From a virus, in the IMG/VR virus record IMGVR_UViG_3300021420_000019, positions 1 through 64,000 of that record: DNA of 64,000 bases; one strand, given 5' to 3'. Under the pieces are notes generated by a model. It worked only from the letters and a program-made list of their open reading frames with translations, did not search any database and was not told the origin of the DNA. Below, in pieces: positions 9,451 to 52,563 of this stretch (position 1 is its first letter; each line of letters opens with the position of its first letter). The position numbers were made by a program, and so were the translations under genes.

Positions 9451-9831
9451 TTATCGAACCCACTCCGCTGAGATCAGTGCCTCGCCTCGGACCCCGGGCG
9501 GCGGGATCACGCCTATACCGACCGTGACACGGTCTGCCGCGTTAACCCCCGCGTGATTCATGACTAACCTTCGAATCAAATCTACGAAATTAAGGGCCAT
9601 CTTCTCGCAGCTCAGCGGACTACGAGGAGCCGGATAGAACTCTTCTTGGAAGACCTGGTTAACTTCCAACTGATCGATGATAAATCCGTCTCCGTCCAAG
9701 AATTCTGAATCAGACACAATTTCGCAGACAAAGAGGTATTCCTGGGCCCCGGGCTCGCCGTGTCCGCAGACCCCGTCCCCGGTACGCCAGTTAGCTTTGA
9801 AGGTGCCTGCTCGTCGCAGTGTTAGCTTCAT
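9451..9831 (-). CDS. Divergent QueD/PTPS-like T-fold protein
   Basis: Size and the motifs LDGDGFIID and SCEKMA resemble QueD GMVVDF and TAENLA; most metal-binding His residues are not evident. Confidence 0.4.
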   Translation of the reverse strand: MKLTLRRAGTFKANWRTGDGVCGHGEPGAQEYLFVCEIVSDSEFLDGDGFIIDQLEVNQVFQEEFYPAPRSPLSCEKMALNFVDLIRRLVMNHAGVNAADRVTVGIGVIPPPGVRGEALISAEWVR

Positions 9832-10727
9832 AGAACCTCCGGCAGCGCGAACCCGAGCCCGACCCGGGACGCCTCTGACTTCCTGGTTTCGATCTCGCTG
9901 CCAAAACGAATATACTTACTATGTACGTCACCCGCGCTATGCCCGGACCAGTAATGTTCCAATCCGGTGGGCGTGCTCATCTTATTTAGATGCGTGATCC
10001 GGAACCTACGGAACGAGTGAAATCCGGTAACTCTATTCTTTTCAAGACGATCACGGTAGCCGCTCTCCTTGCCAGGGAACAAAAATCCAACGACTTCGGG
10101 AGCGCTCTTCGCAAGAAACTCGTTGAGTTCGGGACTCAAATCCACTTCCCGTTGGCCCGCCTTGGTCTTGGTCGGGCCCAGGCCCGTTCTAGTCCTCTGC
10201 TGCCTTACGACAATTTTTGACTCCGAAGGAATCCAAACAGTGCTAACTCCATCATCTTCAATAACTTGTATAGCCAGAGCTTCGGCAATTCTCAATCCGG
10301 TTCCCGCCAGCAAGGCGTAGAGTGCCTTATCGTGGACGTTCGCCTTCTGTAGGGCGGTCTCTAGCGTTTCTAGGGCTATCATAGCGCCCTCTGAGACCGG
10401 CTCTGGCGCGTCAATGATATCCGCGCTCCAGGTTGTTGGGAAGAGCTGATTCCCGTCTTCATCGGCAGCACTTTTCTTGACCTTTTTAATCAACATCACG
10501 TTTAACGCGATTGACCTGGGCGAGTATCCTTGCTCGGAGAGCTTGGTCACGGTCTCGTTAAGTACTTTATTGCCTATATCTTGCAACGGCATTTTGCCTA
10601 TGATAGGGGCCAAAATGTTAATCGCAGTCTGGTAGGTCCTAACGGACGCCGGGCGGAGCGGGTTGCGCTTCCGATTCGCGCCCTCTTTCAGGAACCGCTC
10701 AGCCTGCTGTTCGAATGTGACTTTCAT
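9828..10727 (-). CDS. Tyrosine recombinase/integrase
   Basis: TGLRIAE, KT, HSFRR, GH and C-terminal Y catalytic pattern; start moved to 10727 because of a GGAGG RBS and upstream promoter. Confidence 0.9.
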   Translation of the reverse strand: MKVTFEQQAERFLKEGANRKRNPLRPASVRTYQTAINILAPIIGKMPLQDIGNKVLNETVTKLSEQGYSPRSIALNVMLIKKVKKSAADEDGNQLFPTTWSADIIDAPEPVSEGAMIALETLETALQKANVHDKALYALLAGTGLRIAEALAIQVIEDDGVSTVWIPSESKIVVRQQRTRTGLGPTKTKAGQREVDLSPELNEFLAKSAPEVVGFLFPGKESGYRDRLEKNRVTGFHSFRRFRITHLNKMSTPTGLEHYWSGHSAGDVHSKYIRFGSEIETRKSEASRVGLGFALPEVL

Positions 10728-10786
10728 CGGTCTTTCCTCCACACCGGCATAATAATCCGATACTTGCGATGTCAAGCCTTATTTTG

Positions 10787-10808
10787 GGGAATTATATAGA
10801 TGACTCCC
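10787..10808 (+). repeat. IS1595-type terminal inverted repeat (orphan left end, or outer end of a nested element)
   Basis: GGGAATTATATAGATGACTCCC matches the ends of 12127..13932. Confidence 0.8.
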
Positions 10809-11060
10809 TCAATCTTGTCCGCTACCGCTTGCCCTTTCAGGATCAACAGCGAGAATTTTTCCCGCCTGGAATATCACATCGAATTCATAAGCTAAGTCTT
10901 GTGCTATCATTTCTTGAGAGTCTTCGCCTTCGTGGGCGGACAGGAATTTTTGAGCCGCGTCTTTGCTTCTTTGTGACGGCGCAATTCCATATTGGTAAGA
11001 CCGAGCGAGAGTAAAAATTTCATCTATTTTCATAACATCTCCTTCAATTGTCGTGGACAT
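10809..11060 (-). CDS. Small hypothetical protein abutting the TIR
   Basis: Stop at 10809-10811 directly adjoins the TIR; GAAGGAG RBS before the internal Met; promoter at 11080. Confidence 0.55.
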   Translation of the reverse strand: MSTTIEGDVMKIDEIFTLARSYQYGIAPSQRSKDAAQKFLSAHEGEDSQEMIAQDLAYEFDVIFQAGKILAVDPERASGSGQD

Positions 11061-11096
11061 CTATTGAATATCCTCACTATGTCAAGCACTATTTTT

Positions 11097-11750
11097 GGGA
11101 ATTATATAGTTAGCTCCCGCGCTGCCGCCTGAATACATGCTTCGCAGGTATAGCAACTCCCGAAGCGTCCGTCCACTTTCGCCCGTTCAAGAACCATTCG
11201 CGCTCCTTTTGGTTGAGTCATCGGCCCTTTGTGCATAACGCTCACACATTTGTGGGAATGCCGCGTTATTACCCAAACCATTGAGCGGCATTCAATCGTT
11301 TCATCCCCGCCACCATACAAGTACTCAAGTGCTTCTTTTTCAAATTCTACCAATGATTTGCTCATGATTTCCCTTTTCATGTGTTGATTTACACGCATCA
11401 AAGCAGTGGACAGGACCGCCGTTCACACTTTGCCATTTGTATGTTAGAAATCCACATTTTTGGCACCGTTTACGCTTTATAGGCGGACCCCACACTCCTT
11501 CTGGCTTGGCATTCGGCATATATTCAGCTCGCTCCTTCTTGGAAATCTCGGAACTGGTCCAGTGGGATTATTGCTATACTGAAATTGGCTCCGATATCGC
11601 GCATTTTCTGGTGCTTTAAGCATAAAACCTGCCCAGCAGTAGGAATATCTAAGCATCGGGTACTCTCTACGGCCAAACATCTGTCAGTAAGCGGATACGT
11701 TTCATTCATAAGTCGTTGATTCCTTTCAGGGAGTTATCTATATAATTCCC
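11097..11750 (-). mobile_element. Non-autonomous IS1595-derived cassette with three small ORFs (11102-11401, 11340-11519, 11524-11709)
   Basis: TIRs at 11097-11118 and 11729-11750; flanks CTATTTTT and TTTATTTT are an imperfect duplication. Confidence 0.75.
11102..11401 (-). CDS. Cassette cargo, Cys/His-rich small protein
   Basis: HKC...CYTCEAC; TAA stop lies inside the left TIR. Confidence 0.6.
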   Translation of the reverse strand: MMRVNQHMKREIMSKSLVEFEKEALEYLYGGGDETIECRSMVWVITRHSHKCVSVMHKGPMTQPKGARMVLERAKVDGRFGSCYTCEACIQAAARELTI

Positions 11751-11764
11751 TTTATTTTTGGAAA

Positions 11765-12052
11765 TTATCCGCTTGACTCTCTCGGTGTACCGCTCCCTAA
11801 ACAAAATGGACAACCATCCCGGTCATAGTGCGTCCGATCATCACAACGATCACCGAAGCAGCACTCGCCGCACCCGGCTGATCCGTCTGATCTTTCAAAT
11901 ATGCGTCCGGGTGTAGGTTTATCTGCTGCTGTTTTTCCGTGTGCGTGCCAGTAACATGAGACGCCAGGATGATAAACGTAGCATCGCCTACAAGGGTGTG
12001 GGAACTTGCAAAACGCGCTGCCTCTCTCGATACACGTACACGCTGTGGTCAT
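11765..12052 (-). CDS. Cys-rich hypothetical protein
   Basis: 95 aa; GAGGG RBS; own TTGACA-17-TATTAT promoter. Confidence 0.55.
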   Translation of the reverse strand: MTTACTCIERGSAFCKFPHPCRRCYVYHPGVSCYWHAHGKTAADKPTPGRIFERSDGSAGCGECCFGDRCDDRTHYDRDGCPFCLGSGTPRESSG

Positions 12053-12086
12053 TGTTTACCCTCTTTGTTTTCGTTTTCTCGCCGAG

Positions 12087-12115
12087 ATAATACAACGATA
12101 TACTCACGATGTCAA
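12087..12115 (-). promoter_or_regulatory. Sigma70-like phage promoter
   Basis: TTGACA (12110-12115), 17 nt, TATTAT (12087-12092). Confidence 0.7.
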
Positions 12116-12271
12116 GCACTATTTAAGGGAATTATATAGTTCACTCCCTTGATTTGGGCTTACCCTTAGCCGACACCGCTCGGTTATTCCTTCGTGCTCT
12201 ACGCTTTGCGGCCTTCGTCTTTATTTTAGGACGGTACGCGAGCACGACATCGGTAATCTGATCTAGGATTT

Positions 12272-13189
12272 TCACTGTGTTAGCCTCTCGAATGTCAAAC
12301 GCTTGCCCGCTACGGCGTCCACAAAACTGTCCAGACGCTCCGTTGTGTGCCGAGATACGTTGCCTTGATTCAGCCGGAAGGTGAACTCATTCACGTATCG
12401 GCCTATGTGCTTCTTATCGGCGTGGTGGTAAACGCCGTGCATCCCGCGCTTCATTACGGCCCAAACGGATTCAATCCCATTTGTGTGAACGTCGCCACGG
12501 ACATACTCGCCTGTGACGTGCTTCACTGAATCGTGCTGGAAGCCTTCCTTTGGAAGCGCGGTATAGCTGCCGTAATCATCGGACAGGATGCGCGTACCGG
12601 GCGCGACGTTCTCATGGATCGCGCCACGAAGGGCTAACCCGCCAGTGCTGGCTACGACCTTAGCAACTGTGTTCCCTCCGCGCTGACGCATCCCTACAAC
12701 GATAGTCTTTTCGGCGCGTTCCCTTGGCTTGTGGATACGGTCGTACATATGCCGATTGCTTTCATCGCCACCGAAGAACGTCTCGTCAACCTCTACGGTT
12801 CCTTGAAGCAACTCCAGTTTGGTCCCGCAAGCCTCACGGAGTCTGTGTAGGACGAACCAAGCGGATTTCTGAGTAATGCCTATCTCTTTGCCCAATTGCA
12901 GGCTAGAGATGCCTTTGCGGGCCGTTACAAGCAAGTACATGGCGTAGAGCCATTTATGCAAGGGAACATGCGAACGCTCAAAGATAGTCTTGGTCCGCAC
13001 TGTGAAGTCCAGTTTGCAGGCATTGCAACGATAGAAGCCGTCCTTGCGCGTCGTGATCCGCTCTTTAGACTTGCACTCGGGACAGGTGACGCCATTCGGC
13101 CAGAGACGGCCTTCCAGATATTTGCGGGCGGAAGGTTCATCCGGGAACAGTTCAAAGAGTTTGAAAGTGCTGATCGTTGACCGACTCAT
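12272..13189 (-). CDS. IS1595-family (ISXO2-like) DDE transposase
   Basis: N-terminal CPEC...CNAC zinc ribbon, HTH, VEVDETFFGG, SDD, HTNGIESVW, YVNEFTFR. Confidence 0.95.
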   Translation of the reverse strand: MSRSTISTFKLFELFPDEPSARKYLEGRLWPNGVTCPECKSKERITTRKDGFYRCNACKLDFTVRTKTIFERSHVPLHKWLYAMYLLVTARKGISSLQLGKEIGITQKSAWFVLHRLREACGTKLELLQGTVEVDETFFGGDESNRHMYDRIHKPRERAEKTIVVGMRQRGGNTVAKVVASTGGLALRGAIHENVAPGTRILSDDYGSYTALPKEGFQHDSVKHVTGEYVRGDVHTNGIESVWAVMKRGMHGVYHHADKKHIGRYVNEFTFRLNQGNVSRHTTERLDSFVDAVAGKRLTFERLTQ

Positions 13190-13488
13190 AACGCATCCCT
13201 ATCATGTAAACCCTTGTGGCCTTTTGGGAGCCTGCACTGATCTTCATACAAGGTTGCTTCGCAGCGAGTTGATTCAATAACAGCATCAAGAAATTTTTCG
13301 GCGATGGGTTCGCTGAGTTCCGACTCAGGCAGTTTATTTTTACTCAACCCCTCAACAAATAGGTCAAGCAAGTCCTGATGATATGGCTGCCACGCGACCC
13401 CCGTTTCGGGATGATGACCTAAACGCTTCTGGATTCTAAGCTCTTGTATTCGTTTTTTAGCAAATTCAATTGCTTCAGGGAGGGTCAT
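13186..13488 (-). CDS. IS passenger, hypothetical protein
   Basis: 100 aa; its stop overlaps the transposase start. Confidence 0.6.
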   Translation of the reverse strand: MTLPEAIEFAKKRIQELRIQKRLGHHPETGVAWQPYHQDLLDLFVEGLSKNKLPESELSEPIAEKFLDAVIESTRCEATLYEDQCRLPKGHKGLHDRDAL

Positions 13489-13775
13489 TATCGGCTCCCA
13501 AAACTTCGATTTTGATCTCGGATAATAGTAGAGCGTGTGAAACCTCGAAGCTGTCCGCGAAAAGCCACTGCATTTGTGCGGCTGTCTCCCACAACCCTGT
13601 CTACGAAGCTGTCTGGAATGCGGCTAGGCGATGTGAATCGGAACACATCACACACATTAGAAAATACCCGAGCCACAACAACAAAGGCTGCGGGGTCACT
13701 TTGGCTCATGTCTTGAATGAAGGCAAGTGCCTGTTGCGTGTTATTAAATTGCCGTGTCCTGAAAGGTCGCATCAT
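13488..13775 (-). CDS. IS passenger, hypothetical protein
   Basis: AGGAG RBS; first gene after the IS promoter. Confidence 0.55.
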   Translation of the reverse strand: MMRPFRTRQFNNTQQALAFIQDMSQSDPAAFVVVARVFSNVCDVFRFTSPSRIPDSFVDRVVGDSRTNAVAFRGQLRGFTRSTIIRDQNRSFGSR

Positions 13776-13813
13776 TTTCGTTTCTCCTGTAGTCAGTATC
13801 AACTTACAGGACC

Positions 13814-13842
13814 ATTATACATAACTCCCTCGCGGTAGTCAA
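13814..13842 (-). promoter_or_regulatory. IS internal promoter overlapping a TIR-like box
   Basis: TTGACT-17-TATAAT; 13816-13829 TATACATAACTCCC matches the TIR core at 13/14 positions. Confidence 0.75.
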
Positions 13843-13944
13843 GTACATTCTGCAATTCAGGCGAAGATTTTTAACGCAAACACGGCACTTAAAGTCGTTT
13901 GTTTACTTGCGGGAGTTATCTATATAATTCCCCTATTTAACGAA

Positions 13945-14685
13945 TTAAAATCCTACACTTGCCTTCTCAATTCGGTCTTTGGCGATTTGAAAATACTTTG
14001 TGTCTTGTTCGATGCCGATGAATTTGCGGTTAAGGTTGACACAGGCAACGCCAGTGGTACCGCTGCCCATACAGTTGTCAAGCACCGTGTCCCCCTCGTT
14101 TGTGTAGGTGCGGATCAGATACTCCATAAGCGCGACGGGCTTTTGTGTGGGGTGTAGTCCGATTTCTCGGTCAAATCGCAAAACCGTTTTAGGGAAACGT
14201 CTCCCCTCGCTTACTGTATCGGTTCTTTTATTGATATTTCCGTAGTTAGACCCCGTATCGTCTTTTCCAGTGCGTTTGTTTTTATATGGCTTACCTTCAA
14301 CCATCTGCGGGTTATATGTAGAGGCCTTATCATAAAAAACGAGAATATTTTCGTGTATCTTCAAAGGCATCCTATTGGCATTCAGGAAGTTGGACGCCAC
14401 GTTCTTCTCCCAAATCCACTCGTATTTAAGAAGATTAAGTTGGGAAGACCCGAGCACTTTATCGAAGGGCGTTTGCGCCGTGAAAACCATCGCCCCCTTG
14501 CATATACCCTCTTGTTGCTTCATAAGGCGAAAGTATTGCGTCCATAGGAGCGGAAGAGAGATGCAGGAATCCCACTTATTTTGGGTCGTGCCGTAAGGCA
14601 AATCAACTAAGACCATATCTACAAACTCCGCAGGAATTTGTTTCATCACTTCTAAACAGTCGCCCTCAAACAGTTGAACGCTCAT
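13945..14685 (-). CDS. DNA N6-adenine/N4-cytosine methyltransferase (beta class)
   Basis: DLPY, HPTQKP, VLDNCMGSGTTG motifs. Confidence 0.93.
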   Translation of the reverse strand: MSVQLFEGDCLEVMKQIPAEFVDMVLVDLPYGTTQNKWDSCISLPLLWTQYFRLMKQQEGICKGAMVFTAQTPFDKVLGSSQLNLLKYEWIWEKNVASNFLNANRMPLKIHENILVFYDKASTYNPQMVEGKPYKNKRTGKDDTGSNYGNINKRTDTVSEGRRFPKTVLRFDREIGLHPTQKPVALMEYLIRTYTNEGDTVLDNCMGSGTTGVACVNLNRKFIGIEQDTKYFQIAKDRIEKASVGF

Positions 14686-14735
14686 GAGACTACCTCCTCT
14701 TCAGGTATAATTGATTACATATACCTTGAAAGATG

Positions 14736-15650
14736 TCAAGTTTTATTTTTCGCTGTAAACCCAAGGGTGAATCCCTCGACCGACTGTCCGACCTTCGATG
14801 CCTTGAACTCGTTCTTGGCGTTGCCCTTAAGACGCCGAAGGGTAGCGTCATAATCCAAATCAAAACAGACCAGAGAGACCACAAGCTCACGGATATGCGC
14901 CAGTCCGAGGCCATCGGTATCTGCGGCCATCTTTTGAATTGTAGATTCCGGCAGCAGGTCCTTTACCGTGTGCCTGATATACTTGATCCTCGCTTCAGCG
15001 ATAGGCGGATTCAGTCCGACAACTAGATCGAACCGGCCCGGGCGGCGTAGTAAACGGTCCTCTAAAACGTCCGGTTTGTTGGTCGTGGCCAAGTGGATGA
15101 TGTTGTCTAACTGTTTTTCGCCATCTAGGAACGACAGCACGTCCGATGCGGTAGCTTCGTCGTGCATCATCCCCTCGATATCCTCAAATATCGTCATCAG
15201 CGGTCTCTTGGGCTCGATCTCGCGGAGCTTTAAAAGTAACTCTTGAGCGTGTCGGATGTTTGTGATAGACACCACGACCCCGTCTCGTGCGATCACCTCG
15301 TCGCACAGTAGCCGGATGATGCTAGTCTTCCCGCACCCAGACGGACCATACAGTAAGACCCCGCGCTTATACAGCAGCCCGATCTTATCGAAAATTTCTT
15401 TCTTATTCCAGAAGTCCTTCATCTGCCCGACGATGTATTCGGTCGGGGTTCCCGGTATATGTATCAAATCGTCTGCGGGGAAGGCTATCTCGACCGCAAA
15501 TTTTTGATCCTCATTGTCGGCCTTTATCTCGTACACTCCGCCGAGAAGTTTCTCGTGAGTCGCATTTATCGGATAAAATCTTCCCCCGCGCTTCGACCAG
15601 TGCGAGAAGTTTTTATCAATATTCAGGTACTCCCAGTCTCTCTCAGACAT
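14736..15650 (-). CDS. AAA+ ATPase
   Basis: GPSGCGKT, IFEDIE, TTN, RRPGRFD. Confidence 0.9.
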   Translation of the reverse strand: MSERDWEYLNIDKNFSHWSKRGGRFYPINATHEKLLGGVYEIKADNEDQKFAVEIAFPADDLIHIPGTPTEYIVGQMKDFWNKKEIFDKIGLLYKRGVLLYGPSGCGKTSIIRLLCDEVIARDGVVVSITNIRHAQELLLKLREIEPKRPLMTIFEDIEGMMHDEATASDVLSFLDGEKQLDNIIHLATTNKPDVLEDRLLRRPGRFDLVVGLNPPIAEARIKYIRHTVKDLLPESTIQKMAADTDGLGLAHIRELVVSLVCFDLDYDATLRRLKGNAKNEFKASKVGQSVEGFTLGFTAKNKT

Positions 15651-15845
15651 ATCTAACCTCCCGAATAATTCTTCTTACATTCAGATACAGACCGAGATAC
15701 CAGATTTCAAAATCGATTCGAGCACGGTGAAACTCGTAGACCATCGGATTGACCAGCTTGCCGTCATGACCGTGGATATCTGTGCAAACCCACCGCTTCT
15801 CTTTTAGGTCTCTCAGATCGGCGTTCACGATAAATTCGAAAAAGT

Positions 15846-16208
15846 TCACTTTGCTTTCCTTTCGGCCTCGGCGTGAAGGGCGGCGAGACGCTTGACTGCC
15901 CAATCGATCCACATTCCCGGTACGACGGTATCATTGGATTTCTGATACCAGACCTCCGCTTCCTCTGCCCTCGCCTTGGCCAGCAACTTGTCGAGCGCGT
16001 GGGCAATTTCAGGAATGATGGACTTGCCGGATGATATTTCTTGCAGAATCAAATCCCGCTCGTTCGCACGCTCAAGCGCCTTCTCGGCTTCAAGCGTGTC
16101 GATCTCATCCAGGAGCTCCCTTTCTCTACCATACGTAACCCTGCAATCCCTGATCCGTTGGCGATCTTCCTTCGTCAACCTAGGCAGTGGTTCTTGCTTG
16201 ACTCTCAT
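15846..16208 (-). CDS. Hypothetical protein
   Basis: 120 aa with GGAGG RBS in an overlapping operon. Confidence 0.55.
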   Translation of the reverse strand: MRVKQEPLPRLTKEDRQRIRDCRVTYGRERELLDEIDTLEAEKALERANERDLILQEISSGKSIIPEIAHALDKLLAKARAEEAEVWYQKSNDTVVPGMWIDWAVKRLAALHAEAERKAK

Positions 16209-16373
16209 TCGACTCCTCCCTTCTCCGGCTCGTGGGCGTCAGCTTGGGGGATGAGGGCGAGGATAAAATCTACCACCTCATATGTTTCCTCAGACTCTCC
16301 AAACTTTTTCCCGTACCTGTCAGCCGCCTCTCTCAGCGCCGCCGCACGCTCAAGCTCCTTCTCGGATTCGAGT

Positions 16374-16853
16374 TCAAGAATTCGCTGCTTTAGCTTGTCG
16401 TTTTCTGTCATATCGCTCATTGGATTCCATCCTGTTACACGTTCGACATTTACGCTGTCCACTCGTTGATACAAGCTGCGTGTTTCCTTCTGTGAATTCA
16501 TGGCCTCGCTTGCAGTGTGTCTTTCGTGCATTCTCGGCACTCAATCCAACTCCACGGAGAATATTCTCCCGGTTCGTTACAGGCTCAACGTGCTTTGGAT
16601 TCCAACACGCCCGAACGCGGCACAGATGATCCAACTGCTTTCCTGGCGGAATTATGCCGCCATAGGCCTCATAGGCCACACGATGAACCTGCTGCGGCTT
16701 TGAATTAACACATATTCTCCCGTAGCCCTTTGTTGATTTTGGCCCGATCCAGACGTGGCAATCACCGACCAAACCGGGAACAGGACATGTCACGAAGATG
16801 GTCTTTTCGAGTAGCCGATCAACTATCGTCTTATTCTTCCCAACTCCGGTCAT
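16374..16853 (-). CDS. HNH endonuclease with C-terminal zinc finger
   Basis: CHVWIG, HRVAY, LDHLCRVRACWNPKH, THCKRGH...CRTC. Confidence 0.9.
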   Translation of the reverse strand: MTGVGKNKTIVDRLLEKTIFVTCPVPGLVGDCHVWIGPKSTKGYGRICVNSKPQQVHRVAYEAYGGIIPPGKQLDHLCRVRACWNPKHVEPVTNRENILRGVGLSAENARKTHCKRGHEFTEGNTQLVSTSGQRKCRTCNRMESNERYDRKRQAKAANS

Positions 16854-16964
16854 CGACTCCTCCCTTCTTCGGCTCATCTTTCTGACGATCTATAAGAAAT
16901 TTAAGTAAATGGACGCCGGGAATTAGTGACCAACACAGAACAAATACGACCCAATCGAGTGTGC

Positions 16965-17549
16965 TCATTCCCGCTCCTTCGTATCTTCATCGAGCGCGGC
17001 CAGTAGTTCGTCAACTAGTTCGTAAGTATCAGGATCGTGAATCTGCCCACCATGGTCTGCATCATCAGTACAGCAATCCAACTTTAGCTGTTCAAGTCGC
17101 ACCTTCGCCCGCTCGATGCGGGCCTGTAAGTCGGTAACTTGAGCGCGATACGCCTTCGTGAGCATATCCACTTGGGCTGAAACTAGCAGTTCATATTCCT
17201 TCCCGGTTTGGTAGCTCATGTGTACGTTGGCGATTTCTTCTTCTTTCGTCGCTTCCAGCACCCGAATTCGCTCTTCTCTTTCCTCAAGCCACGCTTTCAT
17301 GCACTCGATCGCCCCGGCCAGCGTTTCGGGAATAATGCCGAAATGCAACGTATCTTCGATGGCGTCAACCCATTCGCCGTCGCGTTGACGAATCCGCTCC
17401 TCCCGGTCGGCCAGTATTTCGTCTACCTCAGATTGCGAGTAGACGCGCTCAGGCTCAATCTCAGGCCCTTTCTTATCGTGGCACTTACAGGAGCAAGTCC
17501 ACGGCGCTTTGGCTCTCATATGTTCAATATAGCAAGTACAGTTGCTCAT
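16965..17549 (-). CDS. Hypothetical coiled-coil protein
   Basis: 194 aa; GGAGG RBS. Confidence 0.6.
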   Translation of the reverse strand: MSNCTCYIEHMRAKAPWTCSCKCHDKKGPEIEPERVYSQSEVDEILADREERIRQRDGEWVDAIEDTLHFGIIPETLAGAIECMKAWLEEREERIRVLEATKEEEIANVHMSYQTGKEYELLVSAQVDMLTKAYRAQVTDLQARIERAKVRLEQLKLDCCTDDADHGGQIHDPDTYELVDELLAALDEDTKERE

Positions 17550-17560
17550 AGTTCCTCCTA

Positions 17561-17583
17561 AAGAACGCCCGATTTCCCGGGCG
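17561..17583 (-). terminator. Probable intrinsic terminator
   Basis: CGCCCG-loop-CGGGCG followed by TTCTTT on the - strand. Confidence 0.45.
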
Positions 17584-17596
17584 CTCGAACGAAGAA

Positions 17597-18139
17597 CTAG
17601 TTCCCTAAGCGCAGGGTCTTGAAGAACTCATTTGCGTCTTGCTCTGTCGCGTGCAATGACCTGTCGAACACGACGACCCCGATATACGCACGGTAGCCGT
17701 AAGTTGAGACGATCAAGTACGATTCCTGGTTATCGCTCACAGCGTGCGCCTCGCGTGCGAAGATACTGTTAAAGGTCGAGTTCTCTCGGCTGCCCGGGAC
17801 GAGCACCATATTCATAGCTGATATCCCCCCGTCTACAGCGTGATCTAGTGTCGCGACATCGGTTCCGCGAACTGTCGAGTAATCGAAATATGCGATAACG
17901 AAGTCTGCCTTGCCGTCTTTCGTGACAGATTCGAAGGTGTGCTGTTTATACGATGCGTGATCTTCTGTGACGGTCTTGCCGTCTTGGATTGTCGCCGCTA
18001 CCGTGCCGCTGTCTGGCGTAGGAAAGGTGGCCGCGATAACGGAGTTAATCGGGGTGGTCAAAGGATAATCCTGAGTTGCCAAAACGGGAAGCACGAACAT
18101 TAGAACGGACATCACTGATACAACGATTTTATTTTTCAT
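17597..18139 (-). CDS. Exported protein of unknown function
   Basis: Signal peptide MKNKIVVSVMSVLMFVLPVLA. Confidence 0.7.
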   Translation of the reverse strand: MKNKIVVSVMSVLMFVLPVLATQDYPLTTPINSVIAATFPTPDSGTVAATIQDGKTVTEDHASYKQHTFESVTKDGKADFVIAYFDYSTVRGTDVATLDHAVDGGISAMNMVLVPGSRENSTFNSIFAREAHAVSDNQESYLIVSTYGYRAYIGVVVFDRSLHATEQDANEFFKTLRLGN

Positions 18140-18182
18140 AGTTTCTCCTAAGTTTGATTTTAATCTCTATTGCCAAAAATTA

Positions 18183-18764
18183 TTACTTACCGTCCGCCAA
18201 TCTGAGAATCTTCACAGTGTATAACCCGTCACATGATTGGCAACCCGTACCAGTCCCTTGATAGTGAAGGATTCCGTCCTCTCTGCCGTACGCTTTGATA
18301 TACCCGGCTAGAATCTTTGTACCTGTTTCAACATTTTCTTTCTCGTTGAACAAGTTCACCTTGTTCTGGAAATCGTACGTCGATTTGTGAACTGAAGCCA
18401 TAACCTGCATCAATCCGACCGCACCACGGCTAGATGTCGCGTACGGATTACAATCGGACTCCACTGATACTATCGCCGCCACGAGATTTGGCTCCTGGCC
18501 CTCGTTAACTGAAACTTCAGCGACCATCCGGCCTAGCTCTGGGGTCGCGTCCTTGCAGCCCGCGCCAGCTCGACCGAATACCTTGGCGACATCCCACATC
18601 GCCATACTAATCTTCTGTTCTCTCTTATCGGGCTCCGCGATCTTGATTACCTGAACAGGCGGAGGAACCGTATTGACCTTATATGGCTTAAGCGCGAAAA
18701 ACAGCACCGTGATTATGACAGCCGTGATCGACAAATTTATTCGTACCGCTTTTGGAATGTTCAT
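18183..18764 (-). CDS. Membrane-anchored lytic transglycosylase (SLT domain)
   Basis: AIVSVES, GAVGLMQV, N..GT.IL motifs; N-terminal transmembrane segment. Confidence 0.9.
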   Translation of the reverse strand: MNIPKAVRINLSITAVIITVLFFALKPYKVNTVPPPVQVIKIAEPDKREQKISMAMWDVAKVFGRAGAGCKDATPELGRMVAEVSVNEGQEPNLVAAIVSVESDCNPYATSSRGAVGLMQVMASVHKSTYDFQNKVNLFNEKENVETGTKILAGYIKAYGREDGILHYQGTGTGCQSCDGLYTVKILRLADGK

Positions 18765-18781
18765 GGAACCTCCTTAAGTAT

Positions 18782-19059
18782 GAGAATTATATAGTTACTT
18801 CCCGTACTGCTTTTCAAAGACTTGCAAATAATTTTGCACTGCATAATTCAATCGTGCCTGCTCTTGTCTAAGTCGTTTGATTTCTTGTATCAGAAGTTGT
18901 TGAATCACCCACTGCGTATCGTTAGAGCCCCATTGCCCCTGACCGTAACCAACCAATTCCGCAATTTCTTGCCTCGCCGCACTCGCGTTGAAAACTTCTT
19001 TGACCTTTTTCATTTCTTATCTCCTTTGTTTACTTATGGAAGTTAACTATATAATTCCT
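18782..19059 (-). mobile_element. 278-bp non-autonomous IS1595-derived single-gene cassette
   Basis: TIRs at 18782-18803 and 19038-19059; perfect duplication TTAAGTAT (18774-18781 and 19060-19067). Confidence 0.9.
18795..19013 (-). CDS. Cassette cargo, 72 aa helical protein
   Basis: AAAGGAG RBS; TAA stop inside the left TIR. Confidence 0.7.
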   Translation of the reverse strand: MKKVKEVFNASAARQEIAELVGYGQGQWGSNDTQWVIQQLLIQEIKRLRQEQARLNYAVQNYLQVFEKQYGK

Positions 19060-19065
19060 TTAAGT

Positions 19066-19094
19066 ATGGTCTCAGATCGAGTTCAGTTTGTCAA
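19066..19094 (-). promoter_or_regulatory. Sigma70-like phage promoter reading into the cassette and SLT gene
   Basis: TTGACA at 19089-19094, 17 nt, TGA-GACCAT. Confidence 0.55.
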
Positions 19095-19457
19095 GCTAAT
19101 TTTCCACTTACTTTTAACATTATCGCGTAGACCACGCCCATCACGGGCCAGACTAGCTCTCCGTAAATATCTCGTGTAAACCACCCGAGTAGAGAGAATA
19201 AGGAGAACGGGAACGCGGACAAGAACAGCCCGACGATATAATATTCGAGTACCTTCAGTACCTTGTTCATTAGTCTCCCTTCGGGTAGTCCCTGCACATG
19301 CACCGCTTAATCGCGAGTTCGAGTAAGTACGCTAAATGTTCAATTGCTTCCTCGGCCCGCTCTGGCGCGATAACGTGAGCGCAGGCTGCAACCAAAATCT
19401 CTGGTTTAGCGGCCAGTGCTCTAGCGGTCTGTATCGCAACTTTCTTTGGGCTCTCCG

Positions 19458-19784
19458 TCACTCGCCCTGCCAACGGCCAAGTATATCGCGAAAATCTAAC
19501 GGCAAAAACCACTCACCATCGATCAGAAAACCTGCGGTTTCGCGCTGCTCTCTTAAAGTCGCGTTAGTCGATTGATGGCTGATGATATCGCCCTCCTCGA
19601 CCTCGGAGTAGATCAGCATGCCCTCAAACGGGCGTGCAGCGCCTACCGCGACGACCTTGAACTTGTAAGGCTCCTCTGGCTTCAGCTTATCGGTCTTCCC
19701 TCCGAAACCCACCGCCGCCTTGTCTGACGGGATATCATCGACTGGGATGACGAACACGTAACCGCGTGCAGGATGTAATTTCAT
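19458..19784 (-). CDS. Divergent GroES-like co-chaperonin
   Basis: MKLHP..GYVFV, KVVAVG, EVEEGD, DILG; GGAGG RBS before 19784. Confidence 0.65.
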   Translation of the reverse strand: MKLHPARGYVFVIPVDDIPSDKAAVGFGGKTDKLKPEEPYKFKVVAVGAARPFEGMLIYSEVEEGDIISHQSTNATLREQRETAGFLIDGEWFLPLDFRDILGRWQGE

Positions 19785-20075
19785 TTTGCCTCCTAAGCAA
19801 AGACTGGCTCTGGTTCGGGTTCCGGCACCGGCTCTTGAACAGGTTCGGAGTTCGGTATCTCTTCCTCGAACGGCCACTTAAAACAGTTAAACATTATATC
19901 CTCCCAATTGGTCGCACGTCTTCAAATCGTTTGCGAGCTTCTTTCTTGCTCTTATAGATATTCAACGCTAGAATCAGAGGCTCACCGGGCTGCACATAAT
20001 CATCGCAAGTGTTTTCCCAATACGGTTTGTCATCTGTATACCCAACCCACCCGAGTATTTTCTTCTTCTTTGCCA

Positions 20076-20456
20076 TCATGATCTCCTATCTCTTTTAGTT
20101 CGTTCCGCTCTCTGATAGCCCTCTTGCGCCTTTAGCCTAAGATTATAACTGGCGTACCAGTCTATATCACAACAGCCACGCTTAGCAAATACCTGCTGAA
20201 GTCGTGCGGTCATTAAGTGATCGATCCTTCCGTCTAAGCCGGTAATCACTAGCGCCTCGGCCTTCTCGCGGAAGCCGTCCTGGACGGTCTTCAAGATCAG
20301 TTTCTGCTCGATGGTACGATCCGCTTCTGGAATCAGCATTACAGAGGGCACATCGTAGCACTCTTTCGGTTGCTTGCAGACCTCGCAGCGTTCGTTAGAT
20401 ACTACCGCCGAGTCCGGCCAGCCCTTCTTCTCTCGACAATCTTTACAGAAGTTCAT
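20076..20456 (-). CDS. Zinc-finger-containing hypothetical protein
   Basis: CKDC...CEVC; downstream of a promoter and a 12-bp hairpin. Confidence 0.6.
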   Translation of the reverse strand: MNFCKDCREKKGWPDSAVVSNERCEVCKQPKECYDVPSVMLIPEADRTIEQKLILKTVQDGFREKAEALVITGLDGRIDHLMTARLQQVFAKRGCCDIDWYASYNLRLKAQEGYQRAERTKRDRRS

Positions 20457-20519
20457 AATTAACCTTTCCTAGGTAGGGGCTAGATTTTATCCCCTACCTA
20501 GGCCTATCTGCGGGATTAA

Positions 20520-20548
20520 AGATTCTCATACTTTCGGTTCTTTGTCAA
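20520..20548 (-). promoter_or_regulatory. Sigma70-like phage promoter
   Basis: TTGACA at 20543-20548, 17 nt, TGA-GAATCT. Confidence 0.6.
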
Positions 20549-20559
20549 GATAAATCTTT

Positions 20560-20895
20560 GGGAATTATATACTTAACTCCCTGTTTGTCGAACGCGAACC
20601 CCACAATAAATCATTCCGCGAATAAAAATTGCCGCCAACTTCCGTAGAAAAGGCAACGACTCTTCGATGCCCACGTTATCGGACCAAGCGGCCTCCAAAC
20701 GACTTAGATACACACGACCCAGAGTAGCAAAGCCAGCGGGTTCTTTAGCTTCATCGTCAGTTCGACGCGGAAGACTGTTTTGGTATTCAATTTCAGTCCA
20801 AACCGCATCGCACGCCGCTTGAAACTCTGCTTTTGTAACTGTTTTACTCATACTATCTCCTTTGTTTACTTGTAGAAGTTAAATATATAATTCCC
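20560..20895 (-). mobile_element. 336-bp non-autonomous IS1595-derived single-gene cassette
   Basis: TIRs at 20560-20581 and 20874-20895; perfect duplication AAATCTTT (20552-20559 and 20896-20903). Confidence 0.9.
20573..20851 (-). CDS. Cassette cargo, 92 aa all-alpha protein (possibly MazG-like fold)
   Basis: AAAGGAG RBS; TAA inside the left TIR; E.EYQ...LRKLAAI pattern is weakly NTP-PPase-like. Confidence 0.6.
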   Translation of the reverse strand: MSKTVTKAEFQAACDAVWTEIEYQNSLPRRTDDEAKEPAGFATLGRVYLSRLEAAWSDNVGIEESLPFLRKLAAIFIRGMIYCGVRVRQTGS

Positions 20896-21869
20896 AAATC
20901 TTTGCTTCTCGTTCACAAAATACGCACTCTTCTTCGCGGGTCTTGCCGTGCTGACACGGATTGCAAGTGCAGCAGTTCGTGAAGCAATTTAAGCACTCAG
21001 AGCAAAGCCCGGTAACGATATCTTCGCAGCCCTGACAGTGTACCCTGTTAAAGGGATCGTGTGCTTCGGTCATCGCAGGTACGGCTCCATCCTGCCTAGT
21101 GGCTTTGTGTTATCGAGCACCTGGGCCAAGACAATAGCCCAGACCGCGTCCATATTGTGCTCGGATTCGCGGGCGATACGATTCACGCGCCTAGACATTT
21201 GATGGTTTGACATCTTTTGGACCTGGCGCTGGATCAGTTGATCGGGCGCTAGTTCCTTCTTCGGTACTGGTGTCTGTTCGTTCATCTCTATACCCAACGA
21301 AACTCTGGTAACGACGGCGGGACTACCCGCCCAACCGAAGCGTGAGATGCTCTGCCGTCTTGATCGACGGTGAATACCGTGAACACCCTTTGTTTTGGGC
21401 GTTCTACGCCCTCAACATAACGTTGGGCGTCACCAAGAAAATCGAACGGTCCGCGAATCCACGGGCTACGGTCGCTCAAGCCATCTGTAATCAGTACATA
21501 AAATTTCATAAATCCTCCTAAGTTTGTTTTAATCTTCCGTCGTTAATTACTGGCCGAAGTTTTCCGTCCGGGCAGCGCCACATCCATTTATTCGCTTCGT
21601 CCAAATAGACTGCGCGATGTTTACATATGTAACACTTCCCGCACCTGGAACAGATGTGAAGCAGCTCGCCATGGGTTCCAGTTAAGCGGCAGATGTGCGC
21701 GACCAGAAGCCACCTTCCTTGATCGAGCCCCCGACCCAGACCTGTTTCCCCCGGCTGCGATTTCGTTCTTCACGTTGCTTTTGATAGGCCTCTCGGCTTC
21801 GTGCATTTTTGCGATCTCTGTGTGTCTTTGTCCCAATCATAAATACCTCACTTGGTTAGTGTTTCATAT

Positions 21870-22388
21870 TTAGGCTTCTTTGTCAAGCTTTTCTTTTTGA
21901 ATCTTGTCGCAATATAAACAAATGTCGGTCAGATCAAACAGGTACAGAAAACTCCCACAGACGAAGCACGAGTACGGCGGGGGCGCAGGCGGTGTATAGG
22001 TCCAGTTAAAGACCTCCTCGATTGGCTTAACAACGAAACACGTTATGCCGGTATCCGGGTCTGTAAAAGTCTCCCACTTCGGCAAGAGATTTTCCTGAGC
22101 TTCTTTCTTAGCTTGTTCGAATAGCTTCTTTAATTCGAGCTTCTTGATGTGTTGTTGGGAGAGGAACTGAAATTTTTCGAGGGCTAACTCGGAGATTGTC
22201 AAACCAGTTTTTGATGGGGACTTACGAAGTTTGTTCAGTACTGCTAGTTGTGCTGTGCGCCATATCCACTCCGGCGGGGACGCCTTGAATCCCGCCGAGC
22301 GCACGGATTCCATGTCATCTCGCCACGCGTCGCCGGGCGAAATCTCTGCTTCAAACCAACTCTCCTTTTCATTCCAGACTATGCGCAT
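21870..22388 (-). CDS. Hypothetical protein with C-terminal zinc finger
   Basis: 172 aa; CFVC...CLYC. Confidence 0.6.
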   Translation of the reverse strand: MRIVWNEKESWFEAEISPGDAWRDDMESVRSAGFKASPPEWIWRTAQLAVLNKLRKSPSKTGLTISELALEKFQFLSQQHIKKLELKKLFEQAKKEAQENLLPKWETFTDPDTGITCFVVKPIEEVFNWTYTPPAPPPYSCFVCGSFLYLFDLTDICLYCDKIQKEKLDKEA

Positions 22389-52353: not shown

Positions 52354-52563
52354 CGTGACGGTGAAAGAGTTAATCTCGGAACTCCAAAAGAGAGACCCAG
52401 AGAGTCGGGTCTTTATGGGCTACGACGGAAACGTAGTAGTATCTGAATCAGATTCGGTTGTATCGCCTTCAGAAGAGGAGATCGAAGTCTGCTGGTGGTC
52501 TGTAAGGCCGGGCGATACAGTTATTTTGTGTAACGAGTAAATAAAGCTTGACAGGAGACTAAA

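Follow-up and report, generated by a model that had tools for sequence, protein, structure and literature searches.

In the first 64,000 nucleotides of the phage genome IMGVR_UViG_3300021420_000019 (hereafter the window; the complete IMG/VR record is 101,523 bp long with 50% GC) we found an insertion sequence (IS) of the IS1595 family, together with small transposase-less relatives of it, whose ends lie a fixed number of base pairs upstream of promoter -35 hexamers. The duplicated 8-bp target ends 3 bp before the hexamer, so that the terminal inverted repeat (TIR) of the element stands 11 nt away from it, and the same spacing recurs around related elements in unrelated contigs. Our comparisons with the general target preference of these elements support the -35 element as the feature that sets this insertion register. 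Promoters throughout this text are predicted from sequence.

Terminal repeats and -35 hexamers

The repeat GGGAATTATATAG occurs nine times in the window when one mismatch is allowed, as against 1.2 copies expected, and none of 100 shuffled sequences reached nine; the rest of the 101,523-bp genome holds no further copy. It forms the tip of a 22-bp TIR with the consensus GGGAATTATATAGwTnACTCCC. A preliminary description of the window had reported four places where exactly 11 nt separate TGTCAA, which is TTGACA on the minus strand, from the repeat that comes after it, and we found this arrangement at all four (the hexamers starting at 10770, 11080, 12110 and 20543; Table 1). What was there called the left TIR is present at these positions and is better named the downstream end, being the one on the 3' side of the transposase gene. 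Read along the gene strand, each site consists of the element end, 8 nt, a further 3 nt, TTGACA, a spacer, a -10-like box, a ribosome-binding site (RBS) and an ATG. The 8-bp targets differ, as had been described, and three elements have perfect duplications (CTATTTAA, TTAAGTAT and AAATCTTT on the plus strand). Also in agreement with the earlier account, the fifth element (18782-19059) is placed between a -10 box and an RBS: its duplication ATACTTAA takes in the final 2 nt of the -10 box GACCAT of a promoter with its -35 at 19089-19094, and the second copy of ATACTTAA directly precedes GGAGG and the start codon of the following gene, an ATG. Folding of the TIR back on itself is possible, and at 11728-11751 it can form a 10-pair hairpin, counting G-T pairs, that was flagged by a terminator scan of the plus strand.

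The promoters at 10770, 11080 and 20543 have a perfect -35 hexamer and an RBS with ATG downstream, with weaker -10 boxes. Promoters of this kind without an insertion had been listed at 14734, 21881, 32693, 48730 and 49397 on the minus strand; all five are present, and we found further ones at 52548 and 53420 on the plus strand, as well as two outside the window, at 71466 and 92061. The unoccupied promoters share an extended form, in which an A-rich block (AAAATAag) and ~3 nt ending in C precede TTGACA.

The junctions at 10770, 11080 and 12110 have extra similarity in the promoter spacer (repeat family D2) and, since they also lie in a nested or tandem array, they may not represent three fully independent events. 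A stronger form of this concern is that the window junctions are copies of one another, generated by duplication or recombination in the style of T4-type cassettes, and not independent insertions. In favour of it, the segments 11068-11118 and 12098-12148 share 88% identity along 51 nt, 29 of which lie outside the TIR, and the units 10787-11079 and 11760-12109 each have a downstream end and a promoter with no upstream end. However, 12127-13932 and 20560-20895 have perfect and different two-sided duplications, there are differences in the 11-nt spacers, in the inner TIR sequence and in the cargo, and at least 17 insertions in unrelated contigs and flanks share the register. We regard copying as very improbable; it is largely refuted as a general account, although it could still explain one or two of the four window junctions. 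The independent data from other contigs remove the worry about non-independence.

Searches of public viral contigs and genome bins with the TIR pattern alone found at least 120 loci in viral contigs and at least 120 in species-representative genomes; counts from these scans are among the matches listed, their totals are lower bounds, and duplicate ends or elements were removed by flank identity. In a first sample of 166 unique ends from viral contigs, chosen by the TIR alone, GTCAA stood at a gap of 11 nt in 10 ends and at each other gap from 0 to 55 in two or fewer (0.16 expected at gap 11; Poisson P = 3e-15). A second sample of 51 unique viral-contig ends, in which GTCAA was required within 0-30 nt (a choice neutral to gap length), had seven ends at gap 11 and at most three at any other, and in a third, drawn from bacterial genome bins, gap 11 was found in 3 of the 170 unique ends listed and any other gap in at most one (P = 7e-4). 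The check proposed in the preliminary description, a plot of distances to TTGACA for a larger set of insertions, thus showed one sharp peak, at 11 nt, in each of three samples that were drawn separately.

Complete elements gave the same picture. We assembled 99 unique elements with perfect 8-bp duplications from the public contigs and this genome, and TTGAC lay exactly 3 bp beyond the duplication (offset 3) in 18 of them, and none of the other offsets in the range 0-29 had more than two. When only TTG was required, 23 of the 99 elements had it at offset 3 versus ~3 elsewhere, and a TANNNT -10 box followed 16-18 nt after the TTG at 12 of these 23 sites versus 4 of 175 control flanks. Since the flanks, duplications and cargo of the offset-3 sites are unrelated, we take them to be independent events at real promoters. 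In the genome bins (loci L330-L449) the 22-bp TIR was nearly invariant across Acidobacteriota, Alpha-, Beta-, Gamma- and Deltaproteobacteria, Planctomycetota, Patescibacteria and Dehalococcoidia; these bins come mostly from soil and peat studies, and their contigs may be host chromosome, prophage or mis-binned phage.

The register was concentrated in one transposase clade. Among 80 loci picked solely by transposase similarity, for which hexamers and offsets were counted partly by eye, the clade closest to the transposase of this phage (≥71% identity) comprised eight copies in contigs of 38-111 kb. Seven of the eight lay at offset 3 from a -35-like hexamer (TTGACn in four, and one each of TTGATA, TTGCAG with a perfect TATAAT, and TGGACA, the last in a promoter resembling that at 20543), and the eighth lay at offset 5, 2 bp off. 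None of ~52 more distant copies had the register (Fisher P = 2e-8 for the clade contrast), and three more distant copies from the other samples (L135, L331 and L370) keep it. Orientation was also biased: in the 12-14 cases where a transposase gene or its remnant gives polarity, the 3' end of the gene faces the promoter and the gene is co-directional with it, with one doubtful case in the opposite orientation that had no convincing -10 box.

What sets the insertion register

At the 76 sites without a nearby TTGAC we saw a general target, H-W-W-N-N-W-W-D, with 98% A/T at positions 2 and 7 and with three G/C-rich bases on each side. This preference explains why members of the family land before Shine-Dalgarno sequences, as the fifth element of the window does, and beside terminator-like hairpins (~10 and ~5 of the 99 landing sites, respectively). 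It could be argued that the same preference needs no anchor to account for the promoter sites as well, with an AT-rich 8-mer in G/C-rich flanks being chosen and purifying selection leaving the A-rich block by the -35 as the surviving target. The preference is real, the other recurrent landing places obey it, and the A-rich block is conserved at a fixed distance from TTGACA in these phage promoters. However, when a weight matrix built from the 76 non-promoter sites was used to score offsets 0-8 at the 22 sites with TTGAC nearby, the expectation for offset 3 was 6.9 of 22, about one third of cases, versus 17 observed (Poisson-binomial P = 7e-9), and neighbouring offsets often scored equal to offset 3 or better. 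Several offset-3 duplications violate the general rule and yet keep the register, having G at position 1 (GAAAATAA, GAAGAAAA and GGAAAAAC) or, in some others, at position 2. Selection does not explain the register either: it can penalise insertions closer than 3 bp, yet insertions 4-7 bp away, which keep more of the native promoter, are almost absent. An account without an anchor therefore seems unlikely to us, and the shortfall of the matrix, the rule-breaking duplications and the near absence of offsets 4-7 support the -35 element as setting the register. The promoter positioning proposed in the preliminary description thus held in a larger set with a sharp peak, while the simple AT preference it had named as the alternative fails to reproduce the register. 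We also rejected AT-richness alone as a predictor, as at several sites adjacent 8-mers were as AT-rich as the one used, or richer.

How a -35 element might be read is a separate question. We favour the possibility, to which we give about even chances, that the transposition complex reads the -35 and A-tract DNA itself, by sequence or by shape. Alternatively, in line with the bound RNA polymerase named in the preliminary description, the complex may dock on promoter-bound RNA polymerase holoenzyme, through sigma region 4 or the alpha C-terminal domain, and cut at its upstream edge. The sharpness of the register to a single base pair, the strongly polar orientation, the plausible -10 boxes at nearly all hits, and the tolerance of -35 variants with promoter character (the three non-TTGAC hexamers of the clade, including the TTGCAG with its perfect TATAAT) would all suit docking. 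Set against this, the duplicated 8 bp coincide with the expected position of the alpha C-terminal domain, which should hinder access rather than help it, and little can be read from the hits being promoter-like, because TTGAC outside promoters is mostly in coding sequence, where insertions would be lost. The tolerated hexamer variants lean slightly towards promoter recognition and the alpha-site overlap leans the opposite way. Overall we find docking rather improbable, and we are similarly doubtful of the broader proposal that this IS1595 clade recognises promoters as such via the -35-bound holoenzyme or sigma, integrating cassettes at a fixed base pair where the upstream edge of the polymerase lies.

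On our favoured reading, the phage-borne IS1595 transposase inserts its own element, and presumably the cassettes in trans, with an 8-bp duplication; the duplicated 8-mer ends 3 bp upstream of TTGAC(A), at ~-46 to -39 in our numbering, and the transposase-3'-side end faces the promoter. Of this, the family, the duplications, the 3-bp register with its generality and the bias in orientation are seen in the sequences, while the reader of the -35, the movement in trans and the activity of the promoters are inferred. Among the subsites of UP elements, ~-46 to -39 corresponds to the proximal A-rich block, and after insertion the AT-rich tip of the TIR occupies the place of the distal A-rich block. 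With the 11 bp upstream of the -35 restored by the duplication the promoter would survive, and the downstream phage genes would be left undisturbed. As the upstream end of a cassette provides no promoter, the cargo would have to be transcribed by read-through from upstream; all cassettes are co-oriented with the phage genes. The idea of safe-harbour insertion put forward in the preliminary description fits this anatomy, in the regenerated 11 bp and in the co-directional cargo.

Several points weigh against a -35 anchor as we propose it. The weight matrix is a crude model, and for most insertions the site it ranks best is no more than 1-2 bp from the one actually used. All observed insertions are survivors of selection in compact genomes. 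In the viral contigs and bins listed, most insertions of the wider family lie away from promoters, and the clade that has the register is confounded with a phage lineage and its very uniform promoters, so that the property may belong to the clade or to the lineage. The offset-3 variants TTGATA, TTGCAG and TGGACA fit promoter recognition at least as well as they fit a strict word. To our knowledge there is no experiment on this transposase.

Two further candidates were rejected. A hybrid promoter, in which the 11 nt plus 6 nt of the TIR would make a 17-nt spacer between TTGACA and the TATATA in the TIR, does not work because TTGACA reads on the opposite strand, away from the element. Mimicry involving the TIR, positions 14-18 of which are WTGAC in many members, so that the transposase could recognise TTGAC in a target much as it does its own end, is a weak candidate, since the promoter-targeting clade has TTCAC or ATAAC there; the clade that bears TTGAC in its TIR is not promoter-targeted, and the spacing would be 13 rather than 11 nt.

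The autonomous element and the cassettes

The features of the window are collected in Table 1. The autonomous element, which has a duplication beginning 4 nt past the stop codon of the upstream gene, encodes an intact transposase that matches PF12762 (DDE_Tnp_IS1595) at 1.1e-40, with residues 128-274 covering profile positions 2-153 of 153, and has at its N terminus an IS1595-type zinc ribbon (PF12760 at 2.4e-10, residues 16-59). With this DDE domain, the zinc ribbon, 22-bp TIRs and 8-bp duplications it has the features of the family, and on this basis we place 12127-13932 and its cassettes in IS1595. The ends (GGGAATTAT) agree with ggnnatTAT, which we take to be the consensus of the ISNwi1 group, and the 8-bp duplication fits that group as well; the ISNwi1 group of IS1595 includes members with passenger genes. 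Comparison with three copies of 94-97% amino-acid identity gave ratios of nonsynonymous to synonymous substitution rates (dN/dS) of 0.02-0.03 at dS values of 0.76-1.76, indicating strong purifying selection on the transposase, and the GenBank phage collection held nothing above 37% identity to it. The small basic open reading frame (ORF) that follows the transposase gene is kept at 86% in the elements of loci L225 and L078. The passenger segment 13186-13802 is not shared with related elements at the DNA level. The -10 box of the internal promoter-like site falls in a TIR-like sequence within the element, a degenerate copy (GGGAGTTATGTATAAT), and this copy hints that the passenger module originated by element fusion.

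Table 1. Coordinates of the elements, their parts and the associated promoters in the window
Feature	Position	Strand	Details
Copies of GGGAATTATATAG, plus strand	starts 10787, 11097, 12127, 18782, 20560	+	
Copies of GGGAATTATATAG, minus strand	ends 11750, 13932, 19059, 20895	-	
Autonomous IS1595-family element with passenger genes	12127-13932	-	perfect 8-bp duplication
TIRs of the autonomous element	12127-12148 (downstream); 13911-13932 (upstream)		
Target duplications of the autonomous element	12119-12126; 13933-13940		CTATTTAA on the plus strand
Transposase, 305 aa, intact	12272-13189	-	Pfam profile matches
Small 44-aa basic ORF following the transposase gene	12141-12275	-	ends inside the downstream TIR
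Two passenger ORFs, ~100 and 104 aa	13186-13802	-	between the upstream TIR and the transposase gene
Internal promoter-like site	13814-13842	-	TTGACT, 17 nt, TATAAT
One-gene cassette, 278 bp	18782-19059	-	72-aa ORF 18795-19013; duplications 18774-18781 and 19060-19067
One-gene cassette, 336 bp	20560-20895	-	92-aa ORF 20573-20851; duplications 20552-20559 and 20896-20903
Two-ended transposase-less cassette	11097-11750	-	three ORFs of 61, 59 and 99 aa
Unit with perfect downstream TIR and leader	10787-11079	-	TIR 10787-10808; 83-aa ORF 10809-11060; no upstream TIR of its own
Unit with degenerate downstream TIR (16/22) and leader	11760-12109	-	TIR 11760-11781; 95-aa ORF 11765-12052; no upstream TIR
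-35 TTGACA of the integrase-like gene promoter	10770-10775	-	11 nt from the end at 10787
-35 TTGACA	11080-11085	-	11 nt from the end at 11097
-35 TTGACA of the 95-aa ORF promoter	12110-12115	-	-10 TATTAT 12087-12092; 11/12 sigma-70 consensus matches
-35 TTGACA	20543-20548	-	11 nt from the end at 20560
Unoccupied promoter	14734-14739	-	A-rich block, 3 nt, TTGACA

The one-gene cassettes 18782-19059 and 20560-20895 have at most one mismatch in the 13-mer of the TIR, perfect duplications and no transposase, and so correspond to mobile insertion cassettes, which are defined by the ends of a parent IS, the lack of a transposase, a target duplication and passenger genes. In both, the stop codon falls inside the downstream end, and a conserved leader (AAGTAAACAAAGGAGATA) lies just inside the upstream TIR (19018-19058 and 20854-20894, 93% identical; family D3), where it is predicted to supply an RBS for whichever cargo follows. 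These cassettes are presumably mobilised in trans by the parent transposase, judging solely by the ends they share with it. A related phage of 97 kb encodes a homologue of the cargo of 20560-20895 with 72% identity, and there it is a translationally coupled operon gene without repeats; as this homologue is an ordinary operon gene, the cassettes carry phage genes. The ten small ORFs had no Pfam or PHROG match.

Shortened transposase genes were found in L087 (1806-2260) and L116 (1632-2015), which have residues 1-134 joined to 282-305 or only residues 1-128, and both elements have kept the position 3 bp from TTGAC (offset 3); transposase-less cassettes probably arise through intermediates of this kind. 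At the downstream end of 20560-20895 there is an outward promoter-like site on the minus strand (20564-20591; TCGACA, 16 nt, TATAAT, 11/12) whose -10 box is the TATAAT inside the TIR; the other downstream ends have no matching -35.

The units between 10787 and 13932 form an array that reads, on the gene strand, as the autonomous element, the promoter at 12110, a 95-aa ORF ending in a degenerate end (repeat family D1, 71%), 9 nt, the cassette 11750-11097, the promoter at 11080, an 83-aa ORF ending in a perfect end, the promoter at 10770 and an integrase-like gene. The duplication of the cassette 11097-11750, deduced from the sequence, is imperfect (AAAAATAG versus AAAAATAA plus 1 nt), and the end at 11750 can be paired with 11097 or with 10787, and in both pairings the duplication agrees at 7 of 8 positions and is shifted by 1 nt within an A-run. 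Removing either 11097-11750 or 10787-11750 together with one duplication copy would bring the degenerate end again to 11 nt from TTGACA, and this restored spacing is suggestive, though no proof, of repeated insertion into one 8-bp target. Arrangements of several ends were also seen elsewhere: an Alphaproteobacteria bin has, on a chromosome-sized contig (L372, 1465-2196), three co-oriented ends with 355-bp spacing, that is, a tandem array of cassette ends, and in L092 (9394-9430) a partial TIR directly abuts a full one.

Relation to known systems and genomic setting

The IS1595 family and this kind of cassette are already known; what is new is the base-pair-precise, polar placement by -35 boxes, as is the apparent specialisation of the element for phage genomes. 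We found no description of base-pair-precise IS1595 placement by -35 boxes in full-text searches of the literature outside subscription journals. The element is like the IS1595/ISNwi1 group in its DDE_Tnp_IS1595 domain, zinc ribbon, short TIRs with a probably shared start GGnnATTAT, 8-bp duplications and extra internal genes, and unlike it in residing in phage genomes and being placed 3 bp upstream of -35 hexamers. Siguier, Gagnevin and Chandler reportedly termed the ISNwi1 group with passenger genes 'transporter IS' in 2009. Given that the element is widespread in soil and peat viral contigs and bins and that GenBank phages held nothing above 37% identity, it is probably unstudied.

Most bacterial insertion sequences select their targets loosely or by a short word. 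IS186, which recognises a G/C-rich palindromic word and has a hot spot in the lon promoter of E. coli, is similar to our element in being a bacterial IS with a recurrent landing site in a promoter region; unlike it, IS186 disrupts or alters the promoter and follows no general rule across many promoters. A parallel in geometry is Ty3, a eukaryotic retroelement that targets RNA polymerase III start sites through TFIIIB, for which a protein tether has been shown. As with Ty3 and other tethered integrators, the phage element keeps a fixed and nearly base-pair-precise distance from a promoter element and spares coding sequence, whereas it is itself a bacterial-type DDE transposon. A DDE transposon that inserts at a fixed base pair, in one orientation and with the promoter spared would represent a way of choosing targets that is new for bacteria and phages. 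If recognition of the holoenzyme were true, it would be a bacterial counterpart of Ty3-type tethering and a general route by which phages gain genes with the transcription programme unbroken, and, should the transposase itself determine the register, the element might become a tool for safe-harbour insertion beside promoters. The cassettes also offer a concrete mechanism by which phage early regions gain small extra genes, in units of 280-340 bp with one gene and its RBS each.

Mobile insertion cassettes have been described before, for example MIC231 of IS231 in Bacillus cereus and the qnrD cassettes (PMC3913671). The phage cassettes share with these the ends of a parent IS around one or more non-transposase genes, the target duplications and the presumed mobilisation in trans; they differ in being very compact (278-336 bp), in carrying small phage ORFs, in landing at promoters, and in having a conserved leader with an RBS inside one end and the stop codon inside the other. 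In T4-type phages, promoter-early/stem-loop cassettes, which lack a transposase, TIRs and target duplications, move when repeated promoters recombine (Arbiol et al. 2010, PMC2839356). Both systems place a repeated regulatory sequence around small novel ORFs in a plastic early region and can explain gene shuffling there, but in the present one TIRs, 8-bp duplications and a transposase are found and the promoter is the target, not the mobile part.

Among the genes of the window are those for a DNA polymerase, a helicase, a primase, a ribonucleotide reductase and a nicotinamide phosphoribosyltransferase, and from ~4 to ~49 kb the genes run on the minus strand. A megablast search with 10000-22000 of the window found no match in the GenBank phage collection, and five ~100-kb relatives with the same transposase clade gave no DNA-level alignment to the array region. 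Nor did we find an orthologous empty site in these comparisons. The tyrosine-integrase-like gene (9828-10727, minus strand; PHROG 1, 4e-21), for which the viral contigs searched held no relatives, is the one immediately downstream of the array of cassettes, although the phage in other respects resembles a large virulent type.

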